From the NCBI GenBank assembly GCA_035649595.1, contig DASRJG010000073.1, positions 1 to 56,614 on the forward strand: a stretch of DNA of 56,614 bases, written 5' to 3'. The position numbers and the translations under genes are program-made. The notes beneath the pieces were generated by a model that saw nothing but the letters and a program-made list of their open reading frames with translations, was not told the DNA's origin and made no database searches. Shown here piece after piece: positions 1 through 15,598 of the stretch (the stretch's first letter is position 1; every line of letters begins with the position of its first letter). Source of the DNA: Candidatus Polarisedimenticolaceae bacterium (lineage in GTDB: Bacteria > Acidobacteriota > Polarisedimenticolia > Polarisedimenticolales > DASRJG01).

Positions 1-1187
1 ACCGTCAACACGAGGTCGCCGATCTGACCTCGCACACGCCCCCAGGTCGCGCCGTCCGTGGCCAGCCGGGCGTGCAGGTCCGCGTAGCGACCGCGCGCGC
101 GATCGACGTGCTGGAGGTCCACCTCCGTGCGGATCAGTCCCGCCGCCACCGAGGCGACGAACGGGGACGCGGGGGCCTCGGAGATCGACTGGTCGAGCCA
201 CCCGAGGATCTGCTCTCCGTCCGCCGCGGCGAGGCGCCCCTGCGCGTCGCGGCTCGCGTTGCGGGCAAGCGCGCGGCAGTACCGCGCCGCCGGGCGGAGG
301 GGTGTCTCCGGGGAGCGCTCGAGAAGCGTTCCCGCCGCCTTGTCGATCCGCGAGGCGACCTCGGCGGGGAGGACCTCCCAGCGCGACTCGACGCCCCCCG
401 TGTAGAGGGTCAGAAGGCTCGCGATCGCGGGCTCGAGATCCGGGGCGTCCGGACGCGCGGCGACGTAGGCCTCCAGCCGCGCCGCGGTCGCGCGCTTTAT
501 CGTCCGCTTCCACAGTCGCGTCAGTCTCGGCCCGAGCGCGGGCGCCATCCGATCGACCTTGGCGTCGAGAGCTTCGCGGTCGCTCAAGACCGAGCGCAGA
601 TCCGGCGGAGTCTCCTTGACCTTGAACGATCCCCATCCGGCGTGCTTGCTCTCCTCTTCCACGAGATCCGGGAGGTAGGTCTCGAGTGCGTAGAAGTTCA
701 TGGTGCTTCGCATCTTGCCCCAGCCTTCGGCTCTCTGGATCCGGCCCAGGTCGTAGAACCCGCGCACCATCGCCGCGCGGAGGTTCTCGAGCGCCTCCTT
801 CGGCGCGCCGCGTCCGGCCGCGACGAAGGCGAGGGAAACGTAAGGCTCGTAGTTTCCAGGGAAGATCGCGATCTGAGCCCGGTACGCCGCTTCGGCGCCG
901 CCGGGATCTCCCGCGCGCGTCATCCGGCGTCCCTGCTCTCCCAGGGCCATGAACCGATCGACCTCGGCGGTGCTCAGATTCGGGAGGAACCCCGGCACGG
1001 GGAGCTGGGCCAGATACTCGCTGATCAGCCGCGCCCGGGCGTCTTGCTGCGGCTTTGCGTCGAAACGGCTTCCCGCGCGGCTTCCCGAGCCGCACCCGAG
1101 GGGGCTTCAGCCGCCCGCAGGAAGATCGACCGTGGATGCTGCGAGCACGACCGCGACCACCGACAGGATTCGAGCCGTTCTGCACAT
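1..1187 (-). CDS. hypothetical exported protein; its C-terminus lies beyond the window edge. One in-frame TGA (1107-1109) separates the signal-peptide-like N-terminus from the rest of the frame
   Basis: Hand translation of the minus strand. GGAGG lies 5 nt upstream of the ATG at 1187 (MCRTARILSVVAVVLAASTVDLPAGG-TGA). The same frame then stays open from 1106 to the window edge and reads protein-like (..ISEYLAQLPVPGFLPNLSTAEVDRFMALGEQ..FYDLGRIQRAEGWGKM..). It is absent from the ORF track because it has no stop inside the window. No family recognised. Confidence 0.45.
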
Positions 1188-1955: not shown

Positions 1956-2886
1956 TCCCCGCGTGCCCGGCCAGGGCGGCGACGAGCGCGCCGCGGACGT
2001 TCGTCCCGCCCAGGTGATCGAACCCGAGGAACATCGGGGAAGGGTTCAGCTCCAGGATCTTGAGGACGCCGTTCGACGCCTCCTTGAGGTCCATCCCCGT
2101 GAACCGGAGGCCGGTCGCCAAGGCCGCGCGGAGGCAGATGTCCTCGACGGCGGGGGCGAGCGCGATGCTCTCCACCTTCTCCTCGTTCTGGCGGTAGTCG
2201 AGCGCCTGGCTGTGGATGTGGAACGCGGCGACGACCCGGCCGTCGAGCACGAACACGCGCAGGTCGCGCCCCGGGAGCAGCTCCTGGAAGGTGACCGGCG
2301 CATTGGCGAGCCGGGCGAGCTTCGTCTCGTCGAGATCGGCCGCGGAGAGCTCGCGGGTCGCGGCCCCGCCCGCCACCGGCTTGTAGGCGATGCGGCGGCC
2401 CTCGGCGAAGCGGCGGACCGCTTCGGGGTCGTTCGTCCAGAGGGTCTCCGGGACCGGCAAGCCGCGCTGCGCGAGCTCGGCCATCTGGAACGGCTTGCGC
2501 ACCGCGTCGGAGGCCGACAACGCGTTGTAGATCGGGATTCCCATCGCCTCCCAGCGCCGCATCACCCCGACGAGCACCTCTGCCTTCTCGCGCAGGATGA
2601 CGAGCGTGGTGCGCCAGTCCTCGCTCATCTCGCGCGTCATGTCCACGCCGAACGCGAGGGGAGAGAGGTACAGGCTGCGAAGGTAGACGGCGGACGGGTG
2701 GCCGACGTCCTTCCCGTCCAGCAGGATCGCGTCGGGCTCCGCCCCGAGCGCCAGGCGAGGCGACGCCGGGAACGCCAGGCTGTCGAGGATCACCGGGGCG
2801 GCCCCGACTTCGTCGAGCGACTCGCGCAGCGCCGCGACGTGATCGTCGGATACGGATCCGACGAGAACGATCGGCCCCCGGCTCAC
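1939..2886 (-). CDS. ATP-grasp ligase, MdnC/MvdD-like (putative RiPP macrocyclase)
   Basis: This is the C-terminal 315 aa of track ORF 1939..4467. The GTG start at 2886 overlaps the TGA of the upstream gene (GTGA). The N-terminus IVLVGSVSDDHVAALRESLDEVGAAPVILDSLAFP, and ..RVFVLDGRVVAAFHIHSQALDYRQNEE..GMDLKEASNGVLKILELNPSPMF, resemble microviridin-type ATP-grasp enzymes by eye. Confidence 0.8.
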   Translation of the reverse strand: MSRGPIVLVGSVSDDHVAALRESLDEVGAAPVILDSLAFPASPRLALGAEPDAILLDGKDVGHPSAVYLRSLYLSPLAFGVDMTREMSEDWRTTLVILREKAEVLVGVMRRWEAMGIPIYNALSASDAVRKPFQMAELAQRGLPVPETLWTNDPEAVRRFAEGRRIAYKPVAGGAATRELSAADLDETKLARLANAPVTFQELLPGRDLRVFVLDGRVVAAFHIHSQALDYRQNEEKVESIALAPAVEDICLRAALATGLRFTGMDLKEASNGVLKILELNPSPMFLGFDHLGGTNVRGALVAALAGHAGIRPSA

Positions 2887-4637
2887 CGCAGCACCGCGGC
2901 GACGATCGCGGGGTGCTGCCCGATCATCACGTCCAGATCGTCCAGCGTGGATTCCCAGACCCGCCCGTTGAGCAGCAGGGTCGGCGTTCCGGTCCGGAGC
3001 GCATCGGCGAGCGCGGCGGCTCGCTCCACCGCCTCCGCGGCGGCGGGCAGGACGGCCGCAGGATCCACGGACGGCGGCATGAACGCGGCGACCAGCCGGT
3101 CCGCCCCACCCCGCGCGATCTCCAGGTACTTGCGCGGCTCGCCCTTGATCGTGCGGAAGACGTGGATCGTCTGCTCCCCCCCGGCGAGCAGCCCGATCGC
3201 CGAGACCCCGGCGCACATCGCGAGGTCCCCGGGATCCTTGGGATCGCGCGGCGCGAGATGGAAGGCGACCTGCACGGTGTCGGCGCGGCGCGAGGTCATG
3301 CCGACGAGCCCCTCGACGACGGGACCGCAGCCGCTGCAGAACGGGTGCACGAGCGCGTCGATGCGGAACGGAGCGTCGGACCGGCCGAGGCGGAACGCGG
3401 ACGCCGGTGGGCTCGAGAAGGCGCGGGTGCGCCCGGCCGCCTCCGCGAGCGCGCCCCACGGCGTCGCGGCGACCCAGGCGAGCCTGCTCCGGCTCGCGCG
3501 AGATTCGATGCCCAGCTCGAGGAGCGGCACCACCAGCCCCGCGACCGCCAGGAAGGCGGTGACGTGGATGGCGCCGACGAGCACGAGCATCGGCGGCGTG
3601 AGCGCCTCCCAGGCGCGGGCGCCGGTCACCACGATCATCGCGGCGCCCGCGAGCACCCCGGCGTGGACCGTCATGCAGAGCGGGCAGAACCTCTTGAGCG
3701 GCCAGACCTGCAATCCGATGAAGAACAGGGAGGCCGGCGCGGCGAGCAGGTGCGCCGCCGCGATCCAGCCGAAGCCGAAGACCAGCAGCGGTGGAGGCGC
3801 GATGGCGAGGACCCCGGCGAGGATCACGTTGGACGCGGCGAAGGCGAGACCGAGAACGGGGAGATCGAACCCGCCGATGCGCGCCCACTTCGACCCGAGG
3901 ACGCCTTCGCAGTCGCCGAGCCCTCCGCGGCCGCAGATGCGCTGCGCCAGCCGGGGCGTCGCCGAGGCGACCCTCGTGCGGCGGCTGGCGTGGAACAGGA
4001 CGATGCAGGTGGCGGCGACGAGCAGGTCGAGGCCGATCAGAGCCGCGGCGGCCGCGGCGAGCGGCGGCCGCGCGGAGAGCCGCGCCGCCGCCCCGAGACC
4101 CAAGAGGACGATGCCGAGCGTACCGATCGCCCGGGCGGCAAGGAGCGCCGCCGCTTGGCGGTCGACGCGCGCGAGCGTCCACCAGCGGGCCAGGGGTCCG
4201 GGGTCCCTCGGCGGAGCGACCGGTCGCTCGGGGCTCTCGAACGTGACGATCACGCCGGTCCAGGCGGATGCGAACGAGCCGGCGTCCAGCCGCGTGACCT
4301 CGTGGGTGATCGGGTCCTCGAGCTCGTAGGCGTCGCGCGCGGCCCCGACGAGAACACCGAACGACTCCTCGCCGTCGAGAGGGGACCGCAAATGCACGAT
4401 CGCGGGGAGCACCGCGTCGCCGAGGTTCGCAAGCTCGCCTTGGAAGGCGCGCGCGGTGTATCCCCAATCGCGCGCGACGTGGACGAGCGCGAGCAGCGAC
4501 GAGGGATCGTCGTGCAGCGAGAACCGGGCGGCGACGAGCGTCGGCTCGACGCGGTTCCCGAGCCGCCCGAACACCGACGCGAGCACCTCGGCCGGTCCCG
4601 CGCCCCGATACGTCTCGACTCCCATCGTGTCGGTCAT
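2883..4637 (-). CDS. three-domain membrane protein: Cys-less peptidase-C39-like domain, vitamin K epoxide reductase (VKOR) domain and thioredoxin/DsbA-like domain
   Basis: 584-aa ORF. The N-terminal ~140 aa align by eye to the C39 domain of the neighbouring ABC exporter, but GADC is replaced by GAGP and the domain contains no Cys. The VKOR loop pair is C-x7-C (ICGRGGLGDCEG), with SKWA and the CxxC in FCPLCM. The C-terminal thioredoxin-like CxxC is FCSGCGP. Confidence 0.85.
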   Translation of the reverse strand: MTDTMGVETYRGAGPAEVLASVFGRLGNRVEPTLVAARFSLHDDPSSLLALVHVARDWGYTARAFQGELANLGDAVLPAIVHLRSPLDGEESFGVLVGAARDAYELEDPITHEVTRLDAGSFASAWTGVIVTFESPERPVAPPRDPGPLARWWTLARVDRQAAALLAARAIGTLGIVLLGLGAAARLSARPPLAAAAAALIGLDLLVAATCIVLFHASRRTRVASATPRLAQRICGRGGLGDCEGVLGSKWARIGGFDLPVLGLAFAASNVILAGVLAIAPPPLLVFGFGWIAAAHLLAAPASLFFIGLQVWPLKRFCPLCMTVHAGVLAGAAMIVVTGARAWEALTPPMLVLVGAIHVTAFLAVAGLVVPLLELGIESRASRSRLAWVAATPWGALAEAAGRTRAFSSPPASAFRLGRSDAPFRIDALVHPFCSGCGPVVEGLVGMTSRRADTVQVAFHLAPRDPKDPGDLAMCAGVSAIGLLAGGEQTIHVFRTIKGEPRKYLEIARGGADRLVAAFMPPSVDPAAVLPAAAEAVERAAALADALRTGTPTLLLNGRVWESTLDDLDVMIGQHPAIVAAVLR

Positions 4638-4703: not shown

Positions 4704-4847
4704 TCAGTTGCAGCCGGAACAGCCGTTGGCTTCCTCGCCGCAGGCGAGGGTCGTCGGAAGACAGCACGGACAGGGGAACGGAGGCGGTGGCGGCTTCTTG
4801 CCTCCCCCGTTGACGTGCTTCAGATCCTCGATGAACAACTCACGCAT
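4704..4847 (-). CDS. RiPP precursor peptide A4 (47 aa): MRELFIEDLKHVNGG|GKKPPPPPFPCPCCLPTTLACGEEANGCSGCN
   Basis: Hand-verified translation. GGGAGA RBS upstream of the ATG at 4847. The track ORF 4704..4940 over-extends the N-terminus. Double-glycine leader; core with 6 Cys and TT-x4-EE. Confidence 0.85.
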   Translation of the reverse strand: MRELFIEDLKHVNGGGKKPPPPPFPCPCCLPTTLACGEEANGCSGCN

Positions 4848-4870: not shown

Positions 4871-5005
4871 TCAGCTCGTCGCGCAGCAGCTGTCGCAGGG
4901 GCCTTCCTCGCAGCAAGCGAGGGTGGTGATACCGCAGCACTTACACGGGTGCGGAGGCTTGCCACCCTGCACGTTCTTCAGATCCTCGATGAATAGCTCA
5001 CGCAT
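4871..5005 (-). CDS. RiPP precursor peptide A3 (44 aa): MRELFIEDLKNVQGG|KPPHPCKCCGITTLACCEEGPCDSCCATS
   Basis: Not in the ORF track (too short). Hand translation: ATG 5005, TGA 4871-4873, GGGAGAA RBS upstream. The leader is near-identical to the paralogs. Core has 8 Cys and TT-x4-EE. Confidence 0.85.
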   Translation of the reverse strand: MRELFIEDLKNVQGGKPPHPCKCCGITTLACCEEGPCDSCCATS

Positions 5006-5029: not shown

Positions 5030-5173
5030 TCAGCTCGTGGGCGGGCAGCAGGTGTCGCAGCCGATGGATGATTCCTCGCAGCAGGCCATGGTCGTAGGAT
5101 TGCAGCACCTGCACGGCCTGGGGCCCCATCCGCCTTGGATCTTCTTGAGATCCTCGATGAACAGCTCCTTCAT
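5030..5173 (-). CDS. RiPP precursor peptide A2 (47 aa): MKELFIEDLKKIQGG|WGPRPCRCCNPTTMACCEESSIGCDTCCPPTS
   Basis: Not in the ORF track. Hand translation: ATG 5173, TGA 5030-5032, GGAGG RBS (5182-5186 on the plus strand). Core has 8 Cys and TT-x4-EE. Confidence 0.85.
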   Translation of the reverse strand: MKELFIEDLKKIQGGWGPRPCRCCNPTTMACCEESSIGCDTCCPPTS

Positions 5174-5191: not shown

Positions 5192-5223
5192 ATGAAAAAA
5201 GCGCGGTATGAGGTTCCGCGCTT
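5192..5223 (-). terminator. intrinsic terminator immediately after the first precursor gene (A1)
   Basis: Minus strand reads AAGCGCGG-9 nt loop-CCGCGCTT followed by TTTTTTC. The stem starts at the A1 stop codon. Confidence 0.7.
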
Positions 5224-5363
5224 CAGATGCAGCAGTTGCCGGAGCAACCGTTGGCTTCCTCGCAACACGCGAGGGTGGTGGGGCGACAACACTTGCAGCC
5301 GATCACCTCGTTCTGCTTTCCGCCTTGAACCTTCTTGAGATCCTCGATGAACAGCTCTTTCAT
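5223..5363 (-). CDS. RiPP precursor peptide A1 (46 aa): MKELFIEDLKKVQGG|KQNEVIGCKCCRPTTLACCEEANGCSGNCCI
   Basis: This is the C-terminal part of track ORF 5223..5591. The real ATG is at 5363, preceded by GGAGAGGAG. Core has 8 Cys and TT-x4-EE. Confidence 0.85.
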   Translation of the reverse strand: MKELFIEDLKKVQGGKQNEVIGCKCCRPTTLACCEEANGCSGNCCI

Positions 5364-5432: not shown

Positions 5433-7576
5433 GTCCTTTCCTGGGCCCGAACCAGCTCGGCATAAAGACCCTTTCGGGACAGGAGCGCGGCGTGGTCTCC
5501 CGTTTCCGCGATGGCGCCCCTCTCGAGGACGACGATCCGATCGGCGTCGATGACCGTGCTCAGGCGGTGGGCGATTACGATTCGGGTGCAACGAAGTTGT
5601 GCCAAGTTGTTCGCAATCGTTCGTTCCGTGACGTTGTCGAGGTCGCTGGTCGCCTCGTCCAGGAGGAGAATCGCCGGCCTTCGAAGGAGCGCCCGGGCGA
5701 GGGCGAGCCTCTGCCGCTGGCCCCCCGAGAGGGTCGCCCCCCCGTCGGCCAGAAGGGTGTCGTACCCCATCGGCAGGGCCTCGATGTCGTCATGGATCGC
5801 CGCGATCCGCGCGGCGGCGATGACGGCGTCCAGGTCCGTGTCCGGGTCGGCGAGCGCGATGTTCGCTCGGACCGTGGCTCCGAAGATCCGGGCATCCTGC
5901 GTGACCACACCGATCTGCGCTCGGACGGAGCGGAGCTCCAGCCCTTGGAGGTCGAGATCGTCGTACAGGATCCGCCCGGACTCGGGCGCGTAGAGTCCGA
6001 CGAGCAGACGGGCGAGCGTCGACTTGCCGGCGCCGGACCTCCCGACGATCGCCAGCTTCTCCCCCGGCACGACGTGGAGGGTGACGCCGTCGACCGCGGG
6101 GGGGTCGTTGCGGGAGTACCGGTAGGTGACCTGCTCGAGCGCGATCGCCCCCGAGAGCTTCGGCGCCGGCCGGACGGCGCGGGCGTCCTGCTCGCGAGCC
6201 GCCTGGAGCACGTCCTCGATGCGCGCCACGTGGCTTCGCGTCTCCTGGAGCTGGAGCGCGGTCGCGAGGAGGCTCGAGAGCGGCATCAGGAACCCCGCGG
6301 CGAGGGCATTGAGGGTCAGCATCGTCCCGAGCGAGATCTGGTCCCGGAGCACGAGCACGGTGCCGCCGAGGAGGATCGCGAGCGGGGAGCCGATCGACAG
6401 CGCGGCCGTCAGCGCCCCGGCCAGTGAGCCCACCTGCCCGCGCCGGAGGGCGACGTTCATCTCGTCGATGAACAGGTGCGACCACCGCTCGGTGGAGCGG
6501 CGCTCCGCGCCGAGCGCCTTCAGCGACTCGAAGCCCGCGAGCATGTCGACGATGTGCGACTGCGTCCGCGACGAGGCCTCCAGCTCCTGCGCGGCCAGGT
6601 CGCGCATCGGTCCGCGAAACGCCGCGAAGACGGCGATCTGCGCGAGGCCGAGGACGATCACGAGCGCGCCGAGCCGCCAGCTCGCGGCGACGAGGAGCAC
6701 CAGATACGAGATGACCAGCGCCCCGTCGAGCAGCGTCGAGAGCGAGACGGACGTCAGCGCGGTCCGGAGCGCCCGGTTGCTCTCGTAGCGCGAGAGCAGA
6801 TCCCCCGCCGGGCGGCTCGTGAAGAAGGTGTAGGGAAGGTCCGCCAGCCTCTCCATGAAGCCGAACGTCAGATCGACGTCGAGAACCGTGCGGAGGTGGA
6901 TCAGGAGCACGCCGCGCAGGAGCGTGGCGACGAGCTGGAACACGACCAGCCCCGCCGCGCCGACGGCGAGCAATCCGACGAGCCCCGCGTCCCGCCAGGG
7001 GATCACCCGGTCGACCACCGCTCCCAGGATCAGGGGGAACGCCAGCGCCAGCGCCTGCAGGATGATCGAGAGGGCGATGACCCGGGCGACGATGCCGCGG
7101 TGCCGGAGCACGCGCCCGAGATACGCCGCGACGTACCGGCGACGGATCCGGCGCGCCTGGAACCCTTCTCCGGGCTCGAGGATCAGCGCGACCCCCGTGA
7201 ACCGCTCCCGGAAGCTCTGCATCGGCACCATCCGCGGCCCGGCGGCGGGATCGACCACGCGCACGCCCGATCCGGCCAGCCGGTCGAAGACCACGAAGTG
7301 CTCGAACCCCCAGTGGAGGATCGCGCCACGCGGGAGGAACTTCAGGTCGCCGACGTCGAGCTGAACCCCTCGGCCGCGGACCCCGAAGCGCTGGGCGCCC
7401 ACGACGATGTCGTACGCGCTCGCCCCCCCGCGTCCCGCGCCCACCGCCTCCCGCGCCTCGTCGAGCGTGATGTCGCGCCCGAGGTACCCCAAGACCATCG
7501 TCAGGCAGGCGGCCGCGCAGTCGGCGCCCTCCATCTGCGGGACGAACGGGATCGCGCGCCGCGGCCTAGTCGCCAC
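5429..7576 (-). CDS. bacteriocin/RiPP ABC exporter with N-terminal peptidase C39 domain (double-glycine leader cleavage and export)
   Basis: 715-aa ORF with a GTG start. The C39 catalytic region is QMEGADCAAACL with later HWGFEHF and VVDP. Six-TM ABC membrane domain. Walker A GRSGAGKST, signature LSGGQRQR, Walker B ILLLDEATS. Confidence 0.93.
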   Translation of the reverse strand: MATRPRRAIPFVPQMEGADCAAACLTMVLGYLGRDITLDEAREAVGAGRGGASAYDIVVGAQRFGVRGRGVQLDVGDLKFLPRGAILHWGFEHFVVFDRLAGSGVRVVDPAAGPRMVPMQSFRERFTGVALILEPGEGFQARRIRRRYVAAYLGRVLRHRGIVARVIALSIILQALALAFPLILGAVVDRVIPWRDAGLVGLLAVGAAGLVVFQLVATLLRGVLLIHLRTVLDVDLTFGFMERLADLPYTFFTSRPAGDLLSRYESNRALRTALTSVSLSTLLDGALVISYLVLLVAASWRLGALVIVLGLAQIAVFAAFRGPMRDLAAQELEASSRTQSHIVDMLAGFESLKALGAERRSTERWSHLFIDEMNVALRRGQVGSLAGALTAALSIGSPLAILLGGTVLVLRDQISLGTMLTLNALAAGFLMPLSSLLATALQLQETRSHVARIEDVLQAAREQDARAVRPAPKLSGAIALEQVTYRYSRNDPPAVDGVTLHVVPGEKLAIVGRSGAGKSTLARLLVGLYAPESGRILYDDLDLQGLELRSVRAQIGVVTQDARIFGATVRANIALADPDTDLDAVIAAARIAAIHDDIEALPMGYDTLLADGGATLSGGQRQRLALARALLRRPAILLLDEATSDLDNVTERTIANNLAQLRCTRIVIAHRLSTVIDADRIVVLERGAIAETGDHAALLSRKGLYAELVRAQERT

Positions 7577-8111
7577 GCGCGCTCCGGAGCGAGGGGAACA
7601 GGAGGCCGAGCAGGCTCTCCTTCCCGACCGGCGCCCGAGCCGTGAGCACCTCCCCGGCCGTCGCCCCTGCGCCGCGATCCCCGAGAAGGATCGCGTCGGC
7701 GATCAGGACGCGGGATGGAGCGGCGCCCCCCGGCCAGGTCGCGCCGCGAATCCGATCGATCACGAGAGTGAGCGGGGCGGGCTCGAGCCGCACCGCCCTC
7801 ACCTCCGCACGGAGCGTCCGCCGCGCATCCGAGGGATCGCCGAGCTGGACGACGAGCCCCGACGCGATGCCGCGACGGTCGCGATCGGAGAAATAGAGCG
7901 TGACCGATTCGGGCGTTTCGACCGCGGCGAGCCCTTGCGCGTACACCGCCACGGACCCGAGCGCCGCGTACGCCGCGCCGGCGACGAAGACGGCCACGAG
8001 GAACGCGAACGTCCATCGCGTCCAGGACGGCGGGACACGCAGGACGTCGCCGGAGGATCGTGCTCCGGCGTGGTGGCGGAGCGCCTCTTCGCGAAAGAGT
8101 CCTTCGGTCAT
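7566..8111 (-). CDS. short HlyD-like secretion accessory protein (181 aa; lacks the long coiled-coil region)
   Basis: The real start MTEGLFREEALRHH (ATG 8111) is typical of HlyD-family N-termini and is followed by one TM helix. It overlaps the upstream stop (ATGA) and overlaps the ABC gene start by 11 nt. The upstream part of track ORF 7566..8795 was rejected. Confidence 0.55.
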   Translation of the reverse strand: MTEGLFREEALRHHAGARSSGDVLRVPPSWTRWTFAFLVAVFVAGAAYAALGSVAVYAQGLAAVETPESVTLYFSDRDRRGIASGLVVQLGDPSDARRTLRAEVRAVRLEPAPLTLVIDRIRGATWPGGAAPSRVLIADAILLGDRGAGATAGEVLTARAPVGKESLLGLLFPSLRSARGD

Positions 8112-8869
8112 CGACGGATCAGCCTCCAGCCGTCGGCGTAGAGATAGTCGAGATCGTCCCGGCGCTCCAGCCGTCCCGACACCTCGACGGGGCGACCGAC
8201 CAGATCCGCGATCCGAGACCCCAGCGGGCTTCCATCGGCCGCGACCAGGATGAGATGCGCCTCGCGCCCCCGCTCGTCTCGCGCGAACAGCATCGGCGGG
8301 ATCCCGCCCGCGAGGCATCGCAGCGCGCAGGCGCGGTGCACGGCGAGACGTCCCGGGTTCATCACGCCGAGAAAGCACTTCGAGTCGACGATCTCCCCCG
8401 TGAGCACCCGGCGCCCTTCGTCCACGATGCGCGTCGCGGGAGGGGGCGGTCCGCCGGTCGGGAGCGCGGGCTCGTAGGGCTCGATGTCGGCCAGCTCGAT
8501 CATCGTGGTCGAGCCCCGGACGATGCGCCGTCCCCGCACCGTCACCGGCCTCCCGTCGAATGCGGCCACGACGCCTCCCGCGCCGTGCTTCCCCTCGGCG
8601 ACGAGCGGATAACGGACGACCGCGGCGAACGGCGAGCCGTCGCTCGACTCCCTGGCGAGGAGCACCGGGACCGGCTCGGTCTCGATGGTCCCGCGCCAGG
8701 CCCGAGTCTCTCCGTACTCGAAGACCGCACGGTCGAAGGGGCCGGTCGCCGCCGCGAAGAGGGCGGCTCCGGCGACCGATGCCCCGAGCAGCCACCAGGC
8801 GATGCGTCGCGTCCGCGCCGCGCAGCTCGCGGGAGCGGGAAGGTAGCCGACGAAGAAGTCGTCAGACAC
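8108..8869 (-). CDS. hypothetical membrane-anchored protein with a C-x12-H-x2-C-x3-C motif
   Basis: 253-aa ORF with an N-terminal TM helix (IAWWLLGASVAGAALFAAA) and the motif DSKCFLGVMNPGRLAVHRACALRC. It is translationally coupled on both sides. No family recognised. Confidence 0.6.
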   Translation of the reverse strand: MSDDFFVGYLPAPASCAARTRRIAWWLLGASVAGAALFAAATGPFDRAVFEYGETRAWRGTIETEPVPVLLARESSDGSPFAAVVRYPLVAEGKHGAGGVVAAFDGRPVTVRGRRIVRGSTTMIELADIEPYEPALPTGGPPPPATRIVDEGRRVLTGEIVDSKCFLGVMNPGRLAVHRACALRCLAGGIPPMLFARDERGREAHLILVAADGSPLGSRIADLVGRPVEVSGRLERRDDLDYLYADGWRLIRR

Positions 8870-9863
8870 GGGCCGGCTCGACGGCGGTTCCCGGCTCGTG
8901 CGCCTCGGGGTTCACCCAGACCCGGCCCGCGACGACGCGCACGTCGAAGGTCGCGATCTTCTCCGTGAAGGGCGCGGGGGAGCGGCCGGTCTGCGGGAGG
9001 TACTGGTAGCCGTGCCAGGGGCACGTGATACAGCCGTCGATGATCCGCCCCTCGCCCAGGGGGCCTGCCTGATGCCGGCAGACGTTCGAGACCGCGGAGA
9101 TCCAGCCGTCGTAGCGAAAGACGGCGATGCGCTCCTTGTCGCAGACGATGCGGGCGCGATCCTCGGGGATCTCGGCCGCCGGCCCCGCGTCGATCCAGCC
9201 GTCCGGCCCCCGAGGCGTCGCCCGGTCCCCAGGGCGCTCGCGCGACGCGGCGAGGAGGTGGATCGACAGGAGCCAGATCATCCCCACTCCCGTCGCGATC
9301 GCGAGCGCGGGGTGGATCTCGGAGCGGAGCGCGCCGAACGCGACGTGGAGCGAAAGGAGCGCATACGCGAGATACACCGCCATGTGGAGGGACTTCCAGA
9401 CGCGAGCGCTCAGGTTGGCCAGCCAGAAGTCGTGGCTCGTCGCCGCCATTAGGAAGAGGATCACGAGCGCGCCGAGACCGAAGGTCTGGAACCCGAATCC
9501 CGTGGTCAGGAGGCTGACCAGCGGCGGCACGTTCCCCAGCGCGTGGAACTGGACGATCGCGAAGATCGCGTGCGCCAGCGCCAGGCAGAACATCGCGACG
9601 CCGAGGTGCCGCCGGTTGTAGAGGAGCGGGAGCAGCGCCGGCCGCAGCCGGCACAACGGCCCGATGGAGAGGATGACGTGGAGGAGGAGGAACGCCGCGA
9701 GAGCGAGGCCGCGGATCAGGAGGGTCTCGATCGTCGAGTCCGGATGGACCGCGGCGCCGATCGCGACGAACGCCCCGAGGAACAGCGCGACGCCCGCCGC
9801 GAGCACCGTGTCGTAGCGTCGCTTGAAGCGGTTCCAGCCGACGGCGGCGTAGGAGACGCTCAT
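8862..9863 (-). CDS. ferric-reductase-like (di-heme b, MsrQ/YedZ-type) transmembrane domain fused to a Rieske [2Fe-2S] domain
   Basis: 333-aa ORF. The N-terminal ~200 aa form a multi-TM region with conserved His residues. The C-terminus carries the Rieske motifs CRHQAGPL ... CPWHGYQY. Confidence 0.8.
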   Translation of the reverse strand: MSVSYAAVGWNRFKRRYDTVLAAGVALFLGAFVAIGAAVHPDSTIETLLIRGLALAAFLLLHVILSIGPLCRLRPALLPLLYNRRHLGVAMFCLALAHAIFAIVQFHALGNVPPLVSLLTTGFGFQTFGLGALVILFLMAATSHDFWLANLSARVWKSLHMAVYLAYALLSLHVAFGALRSEIHPALAIATGVGMIWLLSIHLLAASRERPGDRATPRGPDGWIDAGPAAEIPEDRARIVCDKERIAVFRYDGWISAVSNVCRHQAGPLGEGRIIDGCITCPWHGYQYLPQTGRSPAPFTEKIATFDVRVVAGRVWVNPEAHEPGTAVEPARV

Positions 9864-9979
9864 CGCAGGACGACGCCGGCGACGAACGCGATCGGAAGGA
9901 GGATCGCGAGCCCGATCAGGATCAGCCTGTGGGCGCGGCGGAGCGCCCGGGTCAACGCCCTCTCCCGACCGCCGCCCAT
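9860..9979 (-). CDS. possible 39-aa single-TM peptide (MGGGRERALTRALRRAHRLILIGLAILLPIAFVAGVVLR)
   Basis: Its stop overlaps the start of the ferric-reductase/Rieske gene (ATGA), which has no RBS of its own. There is no clear RBS for this ORF, and its start overlaps the 72-aa ORF end by 28 nt. Confidence 0.3.
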   Translation of the reverse strand: MGGGRERALTRALRRAHRLILIGLAILLPIAFVAGVVLR

Positions 9980-10170
9980 CGGCGCGCGATGAACGGCCAG
10001 AGCGCGATCACGCCCGGGAGGACCAGCACGCGGAACGTCCACGGCGTGCCGCGCGCCGCGGCGTCGATGCGTCCGATCCCCGTGATCACGAACGGCACGC
10101 CGATCAGCGTTCCGACGCCGAGGTAGACCCCGAGTGTCCACAGGGCGACACGGGCGGCGTCCGCATGCAT
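9952..10170 (-). CDS. small two-TM membrane protein (72 aa), function unknown
   Basis: ORF with two clear hydrophobic helices. It starts 10 nt after the stop of the upstream gene. No obvious RBS. Confidence 0.45.
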   Translation of the reverse strand: MHADAARVALWTLGVYLGVGTLIGVPFVITGIGRIDAAARGTPWTFRVLVLPGVIALWPFIARRWAAVGRGR

Positions 10171-10180
10171 GGGGCGAAGG

Positions 10181-11941
10181 TTACGGGAAGTACCAGTACA
10201 GCACCAGACTCACCGACCAGCCGCCGCGCTGGACGAGCACGTCGTAGTCGATGGTGTAGGTTCCGCCGGCCGGGAGCTGGGCGGTCAGGTCGAGGTCCTG
10301 ATCGCAGGGTGCATTTCCCGTGCACGCCACGTAGCCGGGACACCAGCCCGCGCGGGAGAACGTGCAGGACGGCCAGCCGCACGCGTTCCAGCCCATGCAC
10401 GCCGTGATGCCCCCCGGGGTGCAGTCGGTCCGGAACGGGACGCCCGTCCAGATCGGCGTGCCGTTCTTCAGGATCCGGTTCGTCCTGTGGCAGAACTCGT
10501 CGCAGTTCTGGCAGGTCCCCCCCGGGCAGTTCGAGGTGGTGGTGCAGGCGTTCCCGTTGTTCGACCCGCCGTCGCAGTAGAGCGTCCCGCCATGGCCGGT
10601 GGTGAAGAGCCGCATCACGACCTTGTTGGCCCCGAGCGGGATCGAGACCGACCGCGTCGCGAGGGGCGCGCCGCCGAACCCGACGACCTGGATCCCCGCG
10701 GCGGGGTGCTTCGCGGACGCTTCCTCGGGGCGCTTGCTGAAGGTGAACTCGCTCGTGACGTGCCAGCCCGCCGAAGCGAAGTTCGCGATCTCGGCCCCGA
10801 CGTACTTGTGCCCGGTGAGCAGCGGGGCGTACGGCGTGACGTCGAGCGAGAGCACGCGGGGGGGGACGACGCCGGTGCCGTTGGGCGCCGGGGCGTCCGT
10901 GCCGAACGGGGTGATCGCGCGCATGAGCTCGAGGTTGTCGTTGGTGACGCAGCTCCCCGTTCCCGCGATACAGCCGTCGAGCACGAGGAAGAGCTGCGCG
11001 ATCCGGTCCCACGGATCGCCGCACGGGTTCCACCCGCCGGGCGTGGGGTTCGTGCTCCCGCACTTGTCCGTGCACCCCATCTGCCCCGGCTTGCACAGCC
11101 TCGAGTCCAGCGTGTAGGTCACCGTGATCTTGGTCCAGTTCCCGGCCGGGAAATCGACGGGGACCATCAGCTGGAACCCGTCGCTGCGCTGAACGGTGCC
11201 GGGCCGCGGCGGACAGCTCTGGCCGCCGCCGAGCCAGCAGAGGGCGTCGTCGTCGTGGGCGCGCACCCGGACACGGCCGGCGACCGCCTCGATGTGCTCG
11301 TTCGAGAACGCGGACTCGTTCCCGGCCGCATCGACGGCCACGACCGCGAAGTAGTAGTTCGTCCACAGCGCGAGGCCGGTCATCGACGTGGCGAGCGACA
11401 GCCCGACGTCCTTCACGTTGTCGTAGACGTGCGATTTCGTGCCGTAGTAGACGAGGTACTTCGTCACCTCTCCCGCCGGCGCCGCCGCGGTCCAGGTGAG
11501 CTCGATCGTCGTGTCGGTGTAGCTGCCGGAGATCACCGGGAGCGTCGTGACGGTGGAGCCCCTCGATTCGGATTCGTTGCCGGCGGCGTCGACCGCAGTC
11601 ACGAGGTAGTAGGCATCGATGCCGGAGCCGAGGGCTCCGGCGTCCAGGAAGCTCGGGGTGGGCGACGTTCCGATGCGATTGCTCCCGCCCGCCTTGTCGG
11701 GGACGAAGCTCGGCACCGATCCCCGATAGACCCGATAGGAGGCGACGCTCTCCACTCCGTCGTTGACGTCGCGATCGACGAGCGACCAGGACAGCGCCGC
11801 GTCGCCCCCCGACTTGCCGACCAGGACGTTGGCCGGGGCCTTCGGCTTGGTGACGTCCGCGCCGAGCGTGGCCGGAGCCAACGCCAGAAGGGCGGGAAGC
11901 ACGAGGATCGCGGGACGCAAGGGCCGGCTCATGATCGCCAT
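10181..11941 (-). CDS. secreted protein: signal peptide, two fibronectin-III-like domains and a Cys-rich PNGase-F-like C-terminal domain
   Basis: Start chosen at MAIMSRPLRPAILVLPALLALAPATLGA (ATG 11941). FN3-like signatures are YRVYRG.., YYLVTAVDAAGNES and YYFAVVAVDAAGNES. The C-terminal ..HGGTLYCDGG..CDEFCHRTN..NG..RAGWCPGYV.. resembles the peptide-N-glycosidase F C-terminal family by eye. Confidence 0.7.
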   Translation of the reverse strand: MAIMSRPLRPAILVLPALLALAPATLGADVTKPKAPANVLVGKSGGDAALSWSLVDRDVNDGVESVASYRVYRGSVPSFVPDKAGGSNRIGTSPTPSFLDAGALGSGIDAYYLVTAVDAAGNESESRGSTVTTLPVISGSYTDTTIELTWTAAAPAGEVTKYLVYYGTKSHVYDNVKDVGLSLATSMTGLALWTNYYFAVVAVDAAGNESAFSNEHIEAVAGRVRVRAHDDDALCWLGGGQSCPPRPGTVQRSDGFQLMVPVDFPAGNWTKITVTYTLDSRLCKPGQMGCTDKCGSTNPTPGGWNPCGDPWDRIAQLFLVLDGCIAGTGSCVTNDNLELMRAITPFGTDAPAPNGTGVVPPRVLSLDVTPYAPLLTGHKYVGAEIANFASAGWHVTSEFTFSKRPEEASAKHPAAGIQVVGFGGAPLATRSVSIPLGANKVVMRLFTTGHGGTLYCDGGSNNGNACTTTSNCPGGTCQNCDEFCHRTNRILKNGTPIWTGVPFRTDCTPGGITACMGWNACGWPSCTFSRAGWCPGYVACTGNAPCDQDLDLTAQLPAGGTYTIDYDVLVQRGGWSVSLVLYWYFP

Positions 11942-11987
11942 TACGTACACCCGGTGCGCGCGACGATCAACGGGAAAAGCCGCGGCG

Positions 11988-13313
11988 TCACTTGAACAGG
12001 TGGTCGTAGCGCCCGGGCTTCCCCTGCTCCCATGGGCGATAGACATTGCAGAAGTCGATCCGCTCGCCGAGCAGCGGGTGGTCGGCCCGCCAGAGCTTGT
12101 ACAGGAGCCCCCGTCGCGGGACGCCGAGGTTCTCCTGCTGGAGCTTCACGAACGCGGTGGCGGCCGCGTGGTTGTCCCGCGTGATCTCCAGGCCGAAACG
12201 GTCGGCCTCGTGCTCCTGCCACCGCGAATACGCCCCGGCGACCGGTGTGACGACGAACGACAGCACGCCGACCAGGATGATGATGAGCGGAAGGGAGGCG
12301 ACGTCCGAGAGCTCCGTGAATCCGAACCGCGACCCGAACCGCGCGATGAGCCCTCCTTGCAGGCGATAGGCGGCATAGAGCGTGACCAGGATCAACCCGG
12401 CGAAGAAGAAGATCGATTTCACCACGTGACCGAGCACGTAGTGGCCCATCTCGTGCCCCATGACGAAGAGCAGCTCCTCCGGCGCGAGCTTGGCGATCGT
12501 CGTGTCCCAGAGGACGATCCGCTTGGTGCCGCCGAATCCGGTGACGTAGGCGTTGACCGTGTTCGTGTCCACGCTCTTCTCGACCTCGAACACGCGCGCG
12601 CCGTCGATTCCGGCGCGCCCCGCGAGGGTCAGGATCTGCTGCTCCAGCGCCTTGTTCTTCATCGGACCGAACTTGTTGAACAGCGGCGCGATCGCCACCG
12701 GGGCGACGAGCAGGAAGAACGCCGCGAGCGGGATCGCGAGCGCGCTGGTCCACAGCCACCAGCGGCGCGGGCTCTTCCGGAGGAGCAGATAGGGGATCCA
12801 CAGGAAGAGCGCGCCGATCACGATCCCCACCATGAGTCCCTTGAGCTCGTCGCCGGCCCACTTGCCGAAGGTCTGATTCGAGAGGCCGTACGCGTGAGGC
12901 CGGACGAACCCGGCGAAATAGGACAGCGGCAGATCGGCCAGGAAGTCGATGAGGGCGAACAGCGCGACGTACACGACGATCGTGAAGAGCCACACGCGTC
13001 CGATCTTCCGGGCGCGATCGCGGAGCTTCGCGGAGAGACCCGTGAAGAGGATGAGCGCCGGCACGAGCAGGCTCCAGACCTGATCGGTCGCCCAGAGCCA
13101 GTTTCCCCCGCGGGCGAAGCGAAGCGCCTTTTCGGTGGGCTCGGGAACGGGGACGGGCCCCCGCTCCGGCTCGGGCGCCGGAGAGGAATCCGCCGCCTGG
13201 TTGGCGATGCCGTGCGGGGACTCCTCGGGAGGAGGATTCGGGGGCGCGGCGAGCCCCGGCACCCCGAGCGCGAGAGCGAGGACCGCGAGGAGCACGGCAA
13301 CACGCGCGCTCAC
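11988..13313 (-). CDS. M48-family zinc metalloprotease (Ste24/HtpX-like), membrane-bound
   Basis: The GTG start at 13313 overlaps the stop of the BON gene (GTGA). HEMGH motif (VMGHEMGHYVLGH) and multiple TM helices. The upstream part of track ORF 11988..13631 was rejected. Confidence 0.85.
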   Translation of the reverse strand: MSARVAVLLAVLALALGVPGLAAPPNPPPEESPHGIANQAADSSPAPEPERGPVPVPEPTEKALRFARGGNWLWATDQVWSLLVPALILFTGLSAKLRDRARKIGRVWLFTIVVYVALFALIDFLADLPLSYFAGFVRPHAYGLSNQTFGKWAGDELKGLMVGIVIGALFLWIPYLLLRKSPRRWWLWTSALAIPLAAFFLLVAPVAIAPLFNKFGPMKNKALEQQILTLAGRAGIDGARVFEVEKSVDTNTVNAYVTGFGGTKRIVLWDTTIAKLAPEELLFVMGHEMGHYVLGHVVKSIFFFAGLILVTLYAAYRLQGGLIARFGSRFGFTELSDVASLPLIIILVGVLSFVVTPVAGAYSRWQEHEADRFGLEITRDNHAAATAFVKLQQENLGVPRRGLLYKLWRADHPLLGERIDFCNVYRPWEQGKPGRYDHLFK

Positions 13314-14119: not shown

Positions 14120-15496
14120 TCAGCGGCAGGTCTGTCTCTTCTTCGGACCGGCGCAATTCCTCGAGCAGCACTGCGCGTCCGCCGTGCAGACCGCTCCCGC
14201 CCCCGAGCACACGGCGGTGCAGCCGCTCGTGTTGAAGGTGCATGATCCGGTGCAGGCGAGCGTTCCTCCGGGGAAGCCCTGGCTCTGGCAGGTCTGTCCG
14301 CCGAGGTCGGCGCCGTCGCACTGCTCGCCGCCCTCACGGACGCCGTTGCCGCAGACGGCCCCTCCGCCCCCGCCCGAGCAGGTCCCGAGCAGGCCGCTGA
14401 TCTGCGGGTAGATCAGGTCCATGCGGCCGCCGGAGTTGTAGCAGCCTCCGAAGTGGTGGAGCGCGACCACCTGGTTCGTGTTCCCCGAGAAGACCGGTGA
14501 GCCGGACGAGCCGCCGATGGTGTCGCAGTAGTAGCAGACGTCCGACGTCGCGCTGTTCCCGGCGCACGGCGCCGCGCGAACCGTGCACTTGCCGCCGGGA
14601 TCCAGATCGGAGTCGATCGAGAGCTTCTTCGGGCCCGCATTGGGATGTCCCGCGACGTAGATCCGCTCCCCGACCGACGGGAGCCGATTCTCGAGCGTCG
14701 CGCACGGAACGCTGCTCGAGTTCCCGGTGGTCGTGAACAGCGTGTAGTCGAGAACCGCGTCGGTCTTGTTCAACGCGTTTCCCAGCACGCTCCCCGAGTA
14801 GGCGGCAGTGCCCGTCCCGCAGCCCGGCGTCTGGTAGTAGAAGCGGAGCTCGATCGAGGCGACCTGGCTCGCGGTCGAGGCGCAGTGGTTGTTCGTCAGG
14901 AACTGACCCGAGTCCGAGACCTTCACGGCCGTGCAGGCGCTGCAGCAGCCGATGTACTCGACCACCGCGGCGTTCGATTGGTCGTACTCCGCCGACGGGT
15001 CGTAGCATTTGACGTCGCGCCAATCCTGGGACCCGCAGACGCTCTCCGGCTGAGCGGGATCCTCGGGAGCCGGGGCCCCGATCTCGACCACGCCGCGGCC
15101 GAACGCGTCGGCCTCGAAGCCGAACGCGCTCCCGTTCGAGGCTTGCAGCCGGAGGATCGCCGTGTCGCCCCGGATCAGGTTCGCCCAGAACTCCCCGGAG
15201 CCCGCCGGTCCCTTGCCTGCGTACGCGAACGACTCGGCGCCGTCCGGACTGGCGATCTGCAGCAGATCGCCCGGAGCGAGGTCGAAGCGGTCGAAGTGCA
15301 CACGGATGTAGGTTGCCCCCGGATACCGGATCGTCCACGTGCGCGCGTTCGGTCCGGATCCGATGCCGTAAGGGTGCGGCGAGCCGAGAGCGACCGTCTC
15401 GAGCTCGCCGATCTTGGTCGCTTGGGGTGTCGCCGCCCAAGCCGCGCCGCCCGCGGCGAGCATGCCGAGAGCGGTCAGTCCTGCCAGAATCCTCAC
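14120..15496 (-). CDS. secreted trypsin-like (S1/Glu-endopeptidase-type) serine protease with Cys-rich C-terminal modules
   Basis: GTG start with a GGAGGAGGG RBS and a signal peptide. Catalytic-type motifs TNNHC and GGSSGSP. C-terminal myxo-type repeat CGNGVREGGEQCDG.. and a final C-x6-C-x5-CC-x3-C-x8-C segment. Confidence 0.8.
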   Translation of the reverse strand: MRILAGLTALGMLAAGGAAWAATPQATKIGELETVALGSPHPYGIGSGPNARTWTIRYPGATYIRVHFDRFDLAPGDLLQIASPDGAESFAYAGKGPAGSGEFWANLIRGDTAILRLQASNGSAFGFEADAFGRGVVEIGAPAPEDPAQPESVCGSQDWRDVKCYDPSAEYDQSNAAVVEYIGCCSACTAVKVSDSGQFLTNNHCASTASQVASIELRFYYQTPGCGTGTAAYSGSVLGNALNKTDAVLDYTLFTTTGNSSSVPCATLENRLPSVGERIYVAGHPNAGPKKLSIDSDLDPGGKCTVRAAPCAGNSATSDVCYYCDTIGGSSGSPVFSGNTNQVVALHHFGGCYNSGGRMDLIYPQISGLLGTCSGGGGGAVCGNGVREGGEQCDGADLGGQTCQSQGFPGGTLACTGSCTFNTSGCTAVCSGAGAVCTADAQCCSRNCAGPKKRQTCR

Positions 15497-15542
15497 ACGT
15501 CCCTCCTCCGGGGATTGGACGTTCCCCCCCTGATCCCGCGTG

Positions 15543-15571
15543 AGACTACGGCCGCGCTGTTACGCTATCAA
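15543..15571 (-). promoter_or_regulatory. candidate sigma-70 promoter of the protease gene (TTGATA-17 nt-TAGTCT)
   Basis: Motif match only: -35 at 15566-15571 and -10 at 15543-15548. Confidence 0.4.
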
Positions 15572-15598
15572 CGCCTTTTTGCGGGGGAGGCACGAGCG

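Follow-up and report, generated by a model that had tools for sequence, protein, structure and literature searches.

A predicted leader-guided thiol oxidase with C39-like, VKOR and DsbA-like domains in a plesiocin-type peptide operon of Acidobacteriota

A 56,614-nucleotide stretch of DNA from a Candidatus Polarisedimenticolaceae bacterium (Acidobacteriota; GenBank assembly GCA_035649595.1, contig DASRJG010000073.1; henceforth referred to as the window) carries an operon in which four genes for short Cys-containing precursor peptides with double-glycine (GG) leaders are followed by a gene for a protein of 584 amino acids (henceforth referred to as the fusion protein). The fusion protein has a three-domain architecture, confirmed by profile searches and structure prediction, that consists of an N-terminal domain with the C39 peptidase fold, a VKOR core and a C-terminal DsbA-like domain. 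We propose that it is a membrane-bound oxidase dedicated to the precursors encoded upstream of its gene, which its C39-like domain would recruit, and that it faces the cytoplasm and acts before export; we assign this reading, which draws on sequence, predicted structure and gene order, a probability of about 0.6. Parts of it had been put forward in an earlier interpretation made from the letters of the window (henceforth referred to as the sequence-only reading).

The relationship of the N-terminal domain to C39 peptidases is evident from its profile and its predicted fold. Pfam Peptidase_C39 (PF03412) matches residues 18-135 with 41.8 bits (E 1.2e-10; curated cutoff 22 bits), and a profile of the family aligns residue by residue with the ComA peptidase domain at E 2.4e-12. 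In the AlphaFold model of the 584-residue protein (mean pLDDT 82.4, built on 18 homologues) the domain is matched by Foldseek to the ComA peptidase domain (5xe8, TM-score 0.74; ComA matches 0.74-0.76), LahT150 (6mpz, 0.73) and the C39-like domain of HlyB (3zua, 0.69). The sequence-only reading had derived the kinship from short parallels with the C39 domain of the exporter encoded in the same operon; the kinship stands, but these parallels do not, since pairwise BLASTP between the two domains was not significant (E 3.1), and the relationship is therefore visible through profiles and structure only. A recent duplication of the operon's own peptidase domain, considered as a source of the C39-like domain, is ruled out by the same comparison. 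That the domain is peptidase-dead and contains no Cys was borne out (there is none within residues 1-150), whereas the proposed replacement of the catalytic Cys by Pro was not: D-C-G-P-A of ComA aligns with G-A-G-P-A of the fusion protein, which puts Ala13 at the catalytic position, two residues ahead of Pro15, and the catalytic His of ComA (in Q-H-Y-Y-V-V) aligns with Ser92. Both catalytic residues are lost in every member of the close clade. Among 141 full-length relatives the catalytic-Cys column is mostly Pro, Ala, Leu, Ile or Val and the catalytic-His column is never His; Cys and His both occur near the catalytic positions in 13 of 262 relatives (5%), never with the canonical spacing. The fold is thus shared with HlyB (3ZUA), PCAT1, ComA and the LahT C39 domain (TM-scores 0.69-0.76) and the catalytic Cys is missing as in HlyB, where the C39-like domain is retained as a substrate-binding module. 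Unlike the HlyB domain, the one described here lies outside any ABC transporter, is fused to an oxidase and has lost the catalytic His too.

The remainder of the fusion protein carries the cysteines that the sequence-only reading had listed, C235-x7-C243 in a loop, C318-P-L-C321 where a membrane helix begins and F-C434-S-G-C437-G-P in the C-terminal domain, and these six redox cysteines together with the cis-Pro are invariant in the 141 full-length relatives. Pfam VKOR (PF07884; curated cutoff 27.5 bits) matches residues 207-331 with 44.6 bits (E 2e-11), a profile of seven family sequences matches the Synechococcus VKOR (4nv6/4nv2) at E 5e-9 to 1e-8, and mean-field covariation (261 sequences) brings out the VKOR core contacts TM1-TM4, TM3-TM4 and loop-TM3; a phmmer search of the Protein Data Bank (PDB) with the VKOR segment alone gave noise only. 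The C-terminal domain had been called thioredoxin-like, which holds in that the CSGC motif lies in a thioredoxin fold, but the domain is better described as DsbA-like: helices 469-547 sit between strands of the thioredoxin fold as a helical insert in the AlphaFold model, and Foldseek matches it to BdbD (3eu3, TM-score 0.61) and to other members of the DsbA family (0.5-0.66). Pfam has no match to this domain in the 584-residue protein itself, and the domains of relatives match Thioredoxin_4 or DSBA.

Two further observations concern these domains. The strongest covarying pair joins D204, a buried Asp in the middle of TM1, to G331 in TM4 (score 3.1; the next pair scores 2.5), and this pair may have to do with quinone binding or with the handling of protons. 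In the Acidobacteriota clade His431, three residues ahead of the CxxC motif, and Cys475 are invariant (about 3213..3347 in the window), and in Bacteroidota relatives (numbering of the Chitinophaga caseinilytica protein P0160, whose CxxC is 398/401) a Cys394 at the position of His431 and a Cys495 ahead of the cis-Pro loop are conserved. Such extra residues near the CxxC might form a structural disulfide or a second redox pair, or bind a metal.

The operon runs from 8111 to 1939, with all genes on the minus strand and intergenic gaps of 23-66 bases or overlaps, in the order protein resembling a membrane-fusion protein (MFP), C39 ABC exporter, four precursors, fusion gene and ATP-grasp gene (Table 1). 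The fusion gene ends in a 4-base overlap (GTGA) with the start of the ATP-grasp gene, an arrangement of translational coupling; a Met at 4625, the start used by gene callers for relatives such as P0001, would shorten the fusion protein to 580 residues. The ATP-grasp protein matches PDB 7DRM at E 3.7e-87 over residues 6-306; 7DRM represents PsnB, which macrocyclises the Group 2 graspetide plesiocin. Its best NCBIfam match is rimK_fam, and a RimK-like poly-glutamate ligase was considered; this assignment is ruled out by the PsnB match together with the TTxxxxEE and LFIEDL motifs of the precursors. In the exporter, Peptidase_C39 scores 96 bits in a match that covers the catalytic region, GADC and HFVV motifs can be read in the sequence, ABC_membrane and ABC_tran score 115 and 117 bits, and the closest NCBIfam model, TIGR03796, scores 571 bits, under its equivalog cutoff.

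All four precursor leaders fit the pattern M[KR]ELFIEDLK.[VI].GG, and each core of 29-32 residues contains exactly one TTxxxxEE motif (TTLACCEE, TTMACCEE or TTLACGEE). PsnB requires the LFIEDL motif in the leader of its substrate and forms two Thr-Glu lactones per TTxxxxEE core motif, and the 15-residue leader combines an ATP-grasp motif with a double-glycine site. All 15 precursors of the Acidobacteriota type share an even Cys count (6 or 8), a [ST]TxxxxEE motif and a 15-residue leader, and they fall into two subtypes: one with 8 Cys in the pattern C.CC...ACCEE..C..CC, the other with 6 Cys, ending in ACGEEANGCSGC and often bearing a Gly-rich tail. Three of the precursors in the window belong to the former and one to the latter. 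Judged by its sequences, the operon is of the Group 2 (plesiocin-type) graspetide kind, having a PsnB-type ATP-grasp, LFIEDL and TTxxxxEE, and the PsnB homologue, the LFIEDL and GG sites, the TTxxxxEE motif and the 6-8 Cys together lead us to predict as its product a single-core plesiocin-type graspetide that is also disulfide-rich.

Table 1. Features of the operon in the window and predicted segments of the fusion protein (TM, transmembrane helix; TM-a, the extra hydrophobic helix).
Feature	Residues	Position	Strand	Basis
Fusion gene: C39-like domain, extra TM helix, VKOR core, TM5 and DsbA-like domain	1-584	2883..4637	(-)	584-residue open reading frame; Pfam; AlphaFold model; GTGA overlap with ATP-grasp gene
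C39-like domain, peptidase-dead	1-147	4197..4637	(-)	Pfam PF03412; profile against ComA; Foldseek; family column counts
TM-a, preceded by Arg-rich segment	160-185	4083..4160	(-)	AlphaFold model helix, break at 186-190; hydrophobicity across relatives
VKOR four-helix core; C235/C243 loop pair (C-x7-C), C318-P-L-C321 at start of TM4	191-345	3603..4067	(-)	Pfam PF07884; profile; covariation
VKOR TM1 (Pfam VKOR begins here)	191-218			AlphaFold model
Loop helix with C-x7-C pair	229-247			AlphaFold model
TM2	259-279			AlphaFold model
TM3	282-311			AlphaFold model
TM4	319-345			AlphaFold model
TM5 and basic juxtamembrane helix, joining VKOR core to C-terminal domain	348-386	3480..3596	(-)	AlphaFold model helix; charge count
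DsbA-like thioredoxin-fold domain; C434-S-G-C437, cis-Pro T551-P552, Cys475	393-584	2886..3461	(-)	Foldseek; invariant residues; Pfam matches of relatives
Precursor A, leader MKELFIEDLKKVQGG, core KQNEVIGCKCCRPTTLACCEEANGCSGNCCI, 8 Cys		5223..5363	(-)	Translation; LFIEDL, GG, TTxxxxEE
Precursor B, leader MKELFIEDLKKIQGG, core WGPRPCRCCNPTTMACCEESSIGCDTCCPPTS, 8 Cys		5030..5173	(-)	Translation
Precursor C, leader MRELFIEDLKNVQGG, core KPPHPCKCCGITTLACCEEGPCDSCCATS, 8 Cys		4871..5005	(-)	Translation
Precursor D, leader MRELFIEDLKHVNGG, core GKKPPPPPFPCPCCLPTTLACGEEANGCSGCN, 6 Cys, second subtype		4704..4847	(-)	Translation
Peptidase-containing ABC exporter (PCAT), 715 aa		5429..7576	(-)	Pfam Peptidase_C39, ABC_membrane, ABC_tran
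ATP-grasp, homologue of PsnB (plesiocin macrocyclase), 315 aa		1939..2886	(-)	PDB 7DRM match; Pfam RimK; NCBIfam ATP-grasp RiPP maturase
Membrane-anchored protein, 181 aa, LFREEAL N-terminus, one membrane helix		7566..8111	(-)	Translation; overlaps exporter start by 11 bases

The association of the fusion gene with such peptides extends well beyond the window. Only 23 relatives, each with C39 and VKOR domains, came out of a word-indexed search. An alignment search for the close clade with one genome per species gave seven loci, all in Acidobacteriota metagenome-assembled genomes, and four metagenome contigs added further loci of this clade. In every readable Acidobacteriota-type locus an exporter, precursors of one and the same family (four in the window, one or two elsewhere), the fusion gene and a PsnB-like ATP-grasp gene form a cassette, which is kept in the window and 11 further loci, down to about 37-40% identity, so that the proposal of a dedicated oxidase for neighbouring GG-leader peptides gains strong backing from synteny (12 of 12 Acidobacteriota-type loci whose flanks could be read). 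When 1.84 billion cluster representatives were searched exhaustively with a profile, 6,945 matched at E ≤ 1e-3, 1,098 at E ≤ 1e-10 and 60 at E ≤ 1e-30. Beyond the close clade, the matches listed are mostly of about 540-560 residues and many are aligned from the C39-like into the thioredoxin domain. These wider relatives are Bacteroidota (Chitinophaga, Mucilaginibacter, Niabella, Sediminibacterium, Anditalea and others) with Pfam C39, VKOR and Thioredoxin_4 matches, whose annotation goes no further than 'vitamin K epoxide reductase family protein' or a like name. Four Bacteroidota loci have the gene right beside genes for peptides of 79-87 residues that carry 6-8 Cys and GG leaders of the kind typical of Bacteroidetes; a C39 ABC exporter is found in three of the four (the contig of the fourth stops shortly past the peptide gene), HlyD/AprE-like proteins in two and TlpA-like redoxins in two. 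The smallest arrangement, in locus L015 of an intermediate family member, is a pair consisting of a gene for a 40-residue peptide (6742..6864, plus strand), MKKNEAPSKSAPVQVLSAADLAAVTGG followed by the core ACRRGCGSGRYAR of 13 residues with two Cys, directly upstream of the gene for relative P0038 (7001..8764); neither an exporter nor an ATP-grasp gene lies within 7 kb. A Cys-containing GG-leader peptide is thus directly adjacent in 15 of the 16 loci read, from two phyla, the contig of the sixteenth ending there; locus L006, whose contig ends 131 bases upstream of the fusion gene, is uninformative for its neighbourhood. Graspetide chemistry varies among the loci and the Cys peptide does not, which identifies the GG-leader peptide with Cys as the constant partner. 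The sequence-only reading had held that its proposal would fail if the architecture were common outside peptide contexts: the architecture is indeed widespread, but a GG-leader Cys peptide is present in every context read.

These neighbourhoods also bear on whether the fusion protein might be a general housekeeping disulfide enzyme, a substitute for DsbB and DsbA that lies beside peptide genes by coincidence. Cyanobacterial VKOR-thioredoxin fusions are established general oxidases, and Bacteroides, according to Coyne et al. (PMC6671954), lack general disulfide machinery, both of which would suit such a role. However, the adjacent peptide genes in two phyla and the translational coupling within a peptide operon speak against coincidence, at least two paralogues (P0160 and P0177) occur in Chitinophaga caseinilytica, and a dead leader-peptidase domain would have no obvious use in a general oxidase. 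We therefore give the housekeeping role hardly any credence.

The orientation of the fusion protein in the membrane decides where oxidation would take place. The sequence-only reading had found its topology puzzling, because C39 domains are normally cytoplasmic while VKOR and thioredoxin active sites face the periplasm; the puzzle arose from a miscount of helices. Between the C39-like domain and TM1 the fusion protein has one hydrophobic helix more than the Synechococcus VKOR (TM-a in Table 1), which, if it spans the membrane, puts the C39-like domain, both VKOR Cys pairs and the DsbA-like domain on one face. TM-a is as hydrophobic as TM1 (mean Kyte-Doolittle value 2.16 vs 2.13 in 259 relatives), most relatives have two hydrophobic stretches between the C39-like domain and the loop cysteines, and short Gly/Pro-containing turns part TM-a from TM1 in the three proteins read residue by residue (the fusion protein of the window, P0078 and P0160).

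The distribution of charges and the requirements of the pathway point to the cytoplasm as this common face. With the large Cys loop left out of the count, because charges in VKOR loops can mislead, the redox face carries on average 9.3 Lys and Arg and the other face 1.4, and the redox face has the higher number in 99.6% of the 259 relatives. The segment ahead of TM-a has 3.5-3.9 Lys and Arg (3.9 in the 15 residues before the helix), and the segment after TM5 has 2.9-3.6 across the family, with 8 in 23 residues in a Chitinophaga protein. In the Synechococcus VKOR the cytoplasmic TM2-TM3 and TM4-TM5 loops read K-R-W-R and H-R-W..K, and here both are nearly uncharged, a comparison that rests on a single canonical bacterial VKOR: tblastn of the VKOR-thioredoxin part against plasmids gave no match that could serve as a canonical control, and a homologue search with a Synechococcus VKOR fragment gave a single partial protein. 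No N-terminal hydrophobic segment or signal peptide is present in 256 of 260 relatives. The leader is intact only in the cytoplasm, where the ATP-grasp enzyme and the exporter peptidase act. Since the charge bias, the lack of a signal peptide and the cytoplasmic location of both the leader-dependent ATP-grasp and the exporter peptidase agree, we consider it probable that the redox centres and the C39-like domain face the cytoplasm and that the fusion protein is an inward-facing VKOR. Precedents exist in that Aeropyrum pernix has a natural inward-facing VKOR paralogue, although most VKORs face outward (PMC13486548), and in that Escherichia coli can form disulfides in its cytoplasm with the help of an inverted VKOR or DsbB (PMC13486548, PMC4727284).

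The same helix count is compatible with an entirely periplasmic arrangement, in which TM-a would be a reverse signal-anchor and the 150-residue C39-like domain would be translocated and there bind the exported core, the periplasmic portion of the export apparatus or some other partner. The net negative charge of the C39-like domain (13.6 Lys and Arg vs 19.2 Asp and Glu) would favour its translocation. In contrast, the general lack of a signal peptide and the Lys and Arg directly before TM-a disfavour translocation of the N-terminal end, odd numbers of Cys within the C39-like domain are frequent (82 of 260 relatives), and the GG leader would already have been removed by the exporter once the peptide leaves the cytoplasm. 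We regard this arrangement as very improbable.

Several further points weigh against an inward-facing protein and, with the single control protein mentioned above, have to be set beside the evidence for it. The bacterial cytoplasm is reducing, which fits oxidation in the periplasm, and so do the TlpA-like redoxins of two Bacteroidota loci, expected to be periplasmic, and two further conserved Cys, a possible structural disulfide, in the thioredoxin domain of most Bacteroidota members. As to charges, human VKORC1 has a luminal loop rich in Lys and Arg. Giant-virus VKORs needed rebalanced loop charges to insert outward in E. coli (PMC13486548). In the model of a Chitinophaga relative (pLDDT 91.8, pTM 0.74) DSSP assigns residues 128-193 to one unbroken helix; taken literally, this model would leave no fold-back and would place the C39-like domain opposite the redox sites. 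Mean-field covariation over the 261 sequences gave nothing decisive here, the signals of the extra helix being at noise level and mutually inconsistent. A separate point concerns recruitment and not orientation: binding of the leader by the C39-like domain is not needed to account for conservation of the leader, since the ATP-grasp enzyme explains LFIEDL.

Some of these points would suit the conventional orientation, which the sequence-only reading had assumed and in which all experimentally characterised bacterial VKORs are found (PMC13486548). The VKOR cysteines and the DsbA-like domain would then be periplasmic and the C39-like domain cytoplasmic, with the extra helix as an interfacial or stalk segment continuous with TM1, as the unbroken Chitinophaga helix would have it; the C39-like domain would dock the oxidase on the exporter or sense the leader-bearing precursor, oxidation would take place as the peptide emerges, and the presumably periplasmic TlpA-like redoxins would adjoin a pathway in their own compartment. 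However, a segment as hydrophobic as TM1 across the family and set off by Gly/Pro-rich breakers in the three proteins read speaks against a stalk, and a continuous hydrophobic helix of 48 residues is ill-suited to a bilayer. The charges would also lie the wrong way round: the loops assigned to the cytoplasm have 1.4 Lys and Arg in total, whereas 3.6 (8 in the Chitinophaga protein) sit in the stretch that follows TM5 and that this orientation sends across the membrane. The MFP-like gene in the operon moreover suggests export in one step past the periplasm. We consequently judge the conventional orientation unlikely.

Under the favoured reading of an inward-facing, dedicated oxidase, maturation would proceed in three steps. 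The PsnB-like ATP-grasp enzyme would make two Thr-Glu lactones on TTxxxxEE, the fusion protein would close 3-4 disulfides with the leader still attached, and the C39 ABC exporter would cleave after GG and export the peptide. The dead C39-like domain, by analogy with its fold, the HlyB precedent and synteny, would hold the double-glycine leader and thereby present the 6-8 core Cys to the tethered oxidase, or it might instead dock onto the exporter. By analogy with VKOR-thioredoxin fusions, electrons would pass from the peptide Cys to C434/C437, on to C235/C243 and C318/C321 and finally to a membrane quinone. Because LFIEDL is the motif bound by PsnB, the leader would be read by more than C39-type domains, and the part held by the C39-like domain is probably the C-terminal half with Val-4, Leu-7 and GG, LFIEDL being the ATP-grasp site.

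VKOR-thioredoxin fusions, C39-like domains and oxidoreductases of bacteriocin operons are each known singly, and the triple fusion is present in databases under generic names. The closest relative in architecture, the Synechococcus VKOR-thioredoxin fusion (3KP9, 4NV2, 4NV5), shares the four-helix core, the loop Cys pair, the membrane CxxC and a fifth helix that tethers a CxxC thioredoxin-fold domain. It differs in being an outward-facing general oxidase without an N-terminal C39-like domain or an extra helix, in the spacing of its loop pair (C-x5-C vs C-x7-C here) and in the C-terminal domain, where a helical insert of the DsbA type is present here. CPHC is the thioredoxin motif of the close Synechococcus-type relative P0288, as against CSGC here and CGPC in most relatives of the fusion protein. 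ApVKORi of Aeropyrum pernix shares the cytoplasm-facing active Cys, which are shown experimentally there (PMC13486548, with reference to Hatahet and Ruddock 2013 and Hibender et al. 2017) and are predicted here; unlike the fusion protein, it is an archaeal stand-alone enzyme without a thioredoxin or C39-like domain that serves general cytoplasmic disulfides in a hyperthermophile and belongs to no peptide operon. The bacteroidetocin thiol oxidoreductase is likewise encoded within an operon of GG-leader peptides and a C39 exporter and is needed for full bacteroidetocin activity (PMC6671954), but its domain make-up is not given in that source, and it might be of the TlpA-like or of the VKOR type. 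Unlike the fusion protein, the oxidoreductases of bacteriocin operons are described as separate proteins without a leader-binding domain, and their site of action is taken to lie beyond the cytoplasm. Other dedicated oxidoreductases of this kind are sublancin BdbA/BdbB and pediocin PedC. Plesiocin (PsnA2/PsnB) shares a close PsnB homologue, the LFIEDL leader and the TTxxxxEE core, yet has four core motifs where there is one here, and the GG site, C39 exporter, 6-8 core Cys and oxidase gene are features of the present system. A census of graspetides (PMC8939145) makes no mention of VKOR, thioredoxin, disulfides or a disulfide-rich single-core Group 2 graspetide, and our literature search found no paper on a VKOR-C39 fusion or one linking VKOR to C39, double-glycine peptides, bacteriocins or graspetides, the paper on VKOR phylogeny being likewise silent.

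If the inward orientation and leader binding hold, the fusion protein represents a distinct class of leader-guided cytoplasmic oxidase. The wider proposal, to which we give somewhat less than even odds, is that these proteins would be the first bacterial class of inward-facing VKORs, a widespread family of leader-guided oxidases of Bacteroidota and Acidobacteriota that fold disulfide-rich peptides in the cytoplasm, close to the membrane, ahead of cleavage and export, here a plesiocin-type graspetide knotted by 3-4 disulfides. Disulfide formation is usually viewed as a general periplasmic service; an oxidase with its own putative substrate-recruiting domain inside a peptide operon implies oxidative folding that is substrate-specific and leader-directed, and would amount to a third route of bacterial disulfide formation. 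Leader recognition in peptide natural products is usually ascribed to PqqD-like domains; a dead peptidase domain put to new use would solve the same task in another way. An inward-facing protein would also mean natural cytoplasmic disulfide formation in mesophilic bacteria and offer a compact single-gene tool for producing disulfide-rich peptides. For genome mining, the family, which exceeds 1,000 clusters at 50% identity, marks Cys-rich GG-leader peptides that current tools leave unflagged, and its Acidobacteriota members mark an undescribed type of disulfide-rich graspetide.

Among the neighbouring genes, the one for the 181-residue protein at the head of the operon has no Pfam or NCBIfam match. 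Its LFREEAL N-terminus presumably resembles that of HlyD/CvaA-type membrane-fusion proteins, its equivalents in related loci (156-333 residues) give weak matches to CusB/CzcB barrel-sandwich domains, and its role may be that of a membrane-fusion partner reduced to a minimum. Two Bacteroidota loci have one to five TlpA-like genes with AhpC-TSA, Redoxin or Thioredoxin_8 domains beside the genes for peptide, oxidase and exporter (L012, 9593..10933; L014, 2925..6503, 9095..10480 and 14379..15572), and the TlpA-like products may act as reductase, isomerase or in immunity. Upstream of the operon in the window, three genes on the minus strand (8108..9863 and 10181..12046) encode a protein of 253 residues with a weak DUF5818 match, a protein of 333 residues in which a ferric-reductase-like membrane domain is joined to a Rieske [2Fe-2S] domain, and a secreted fibronectin-III / PNGase-F-like protein of 621 residues.

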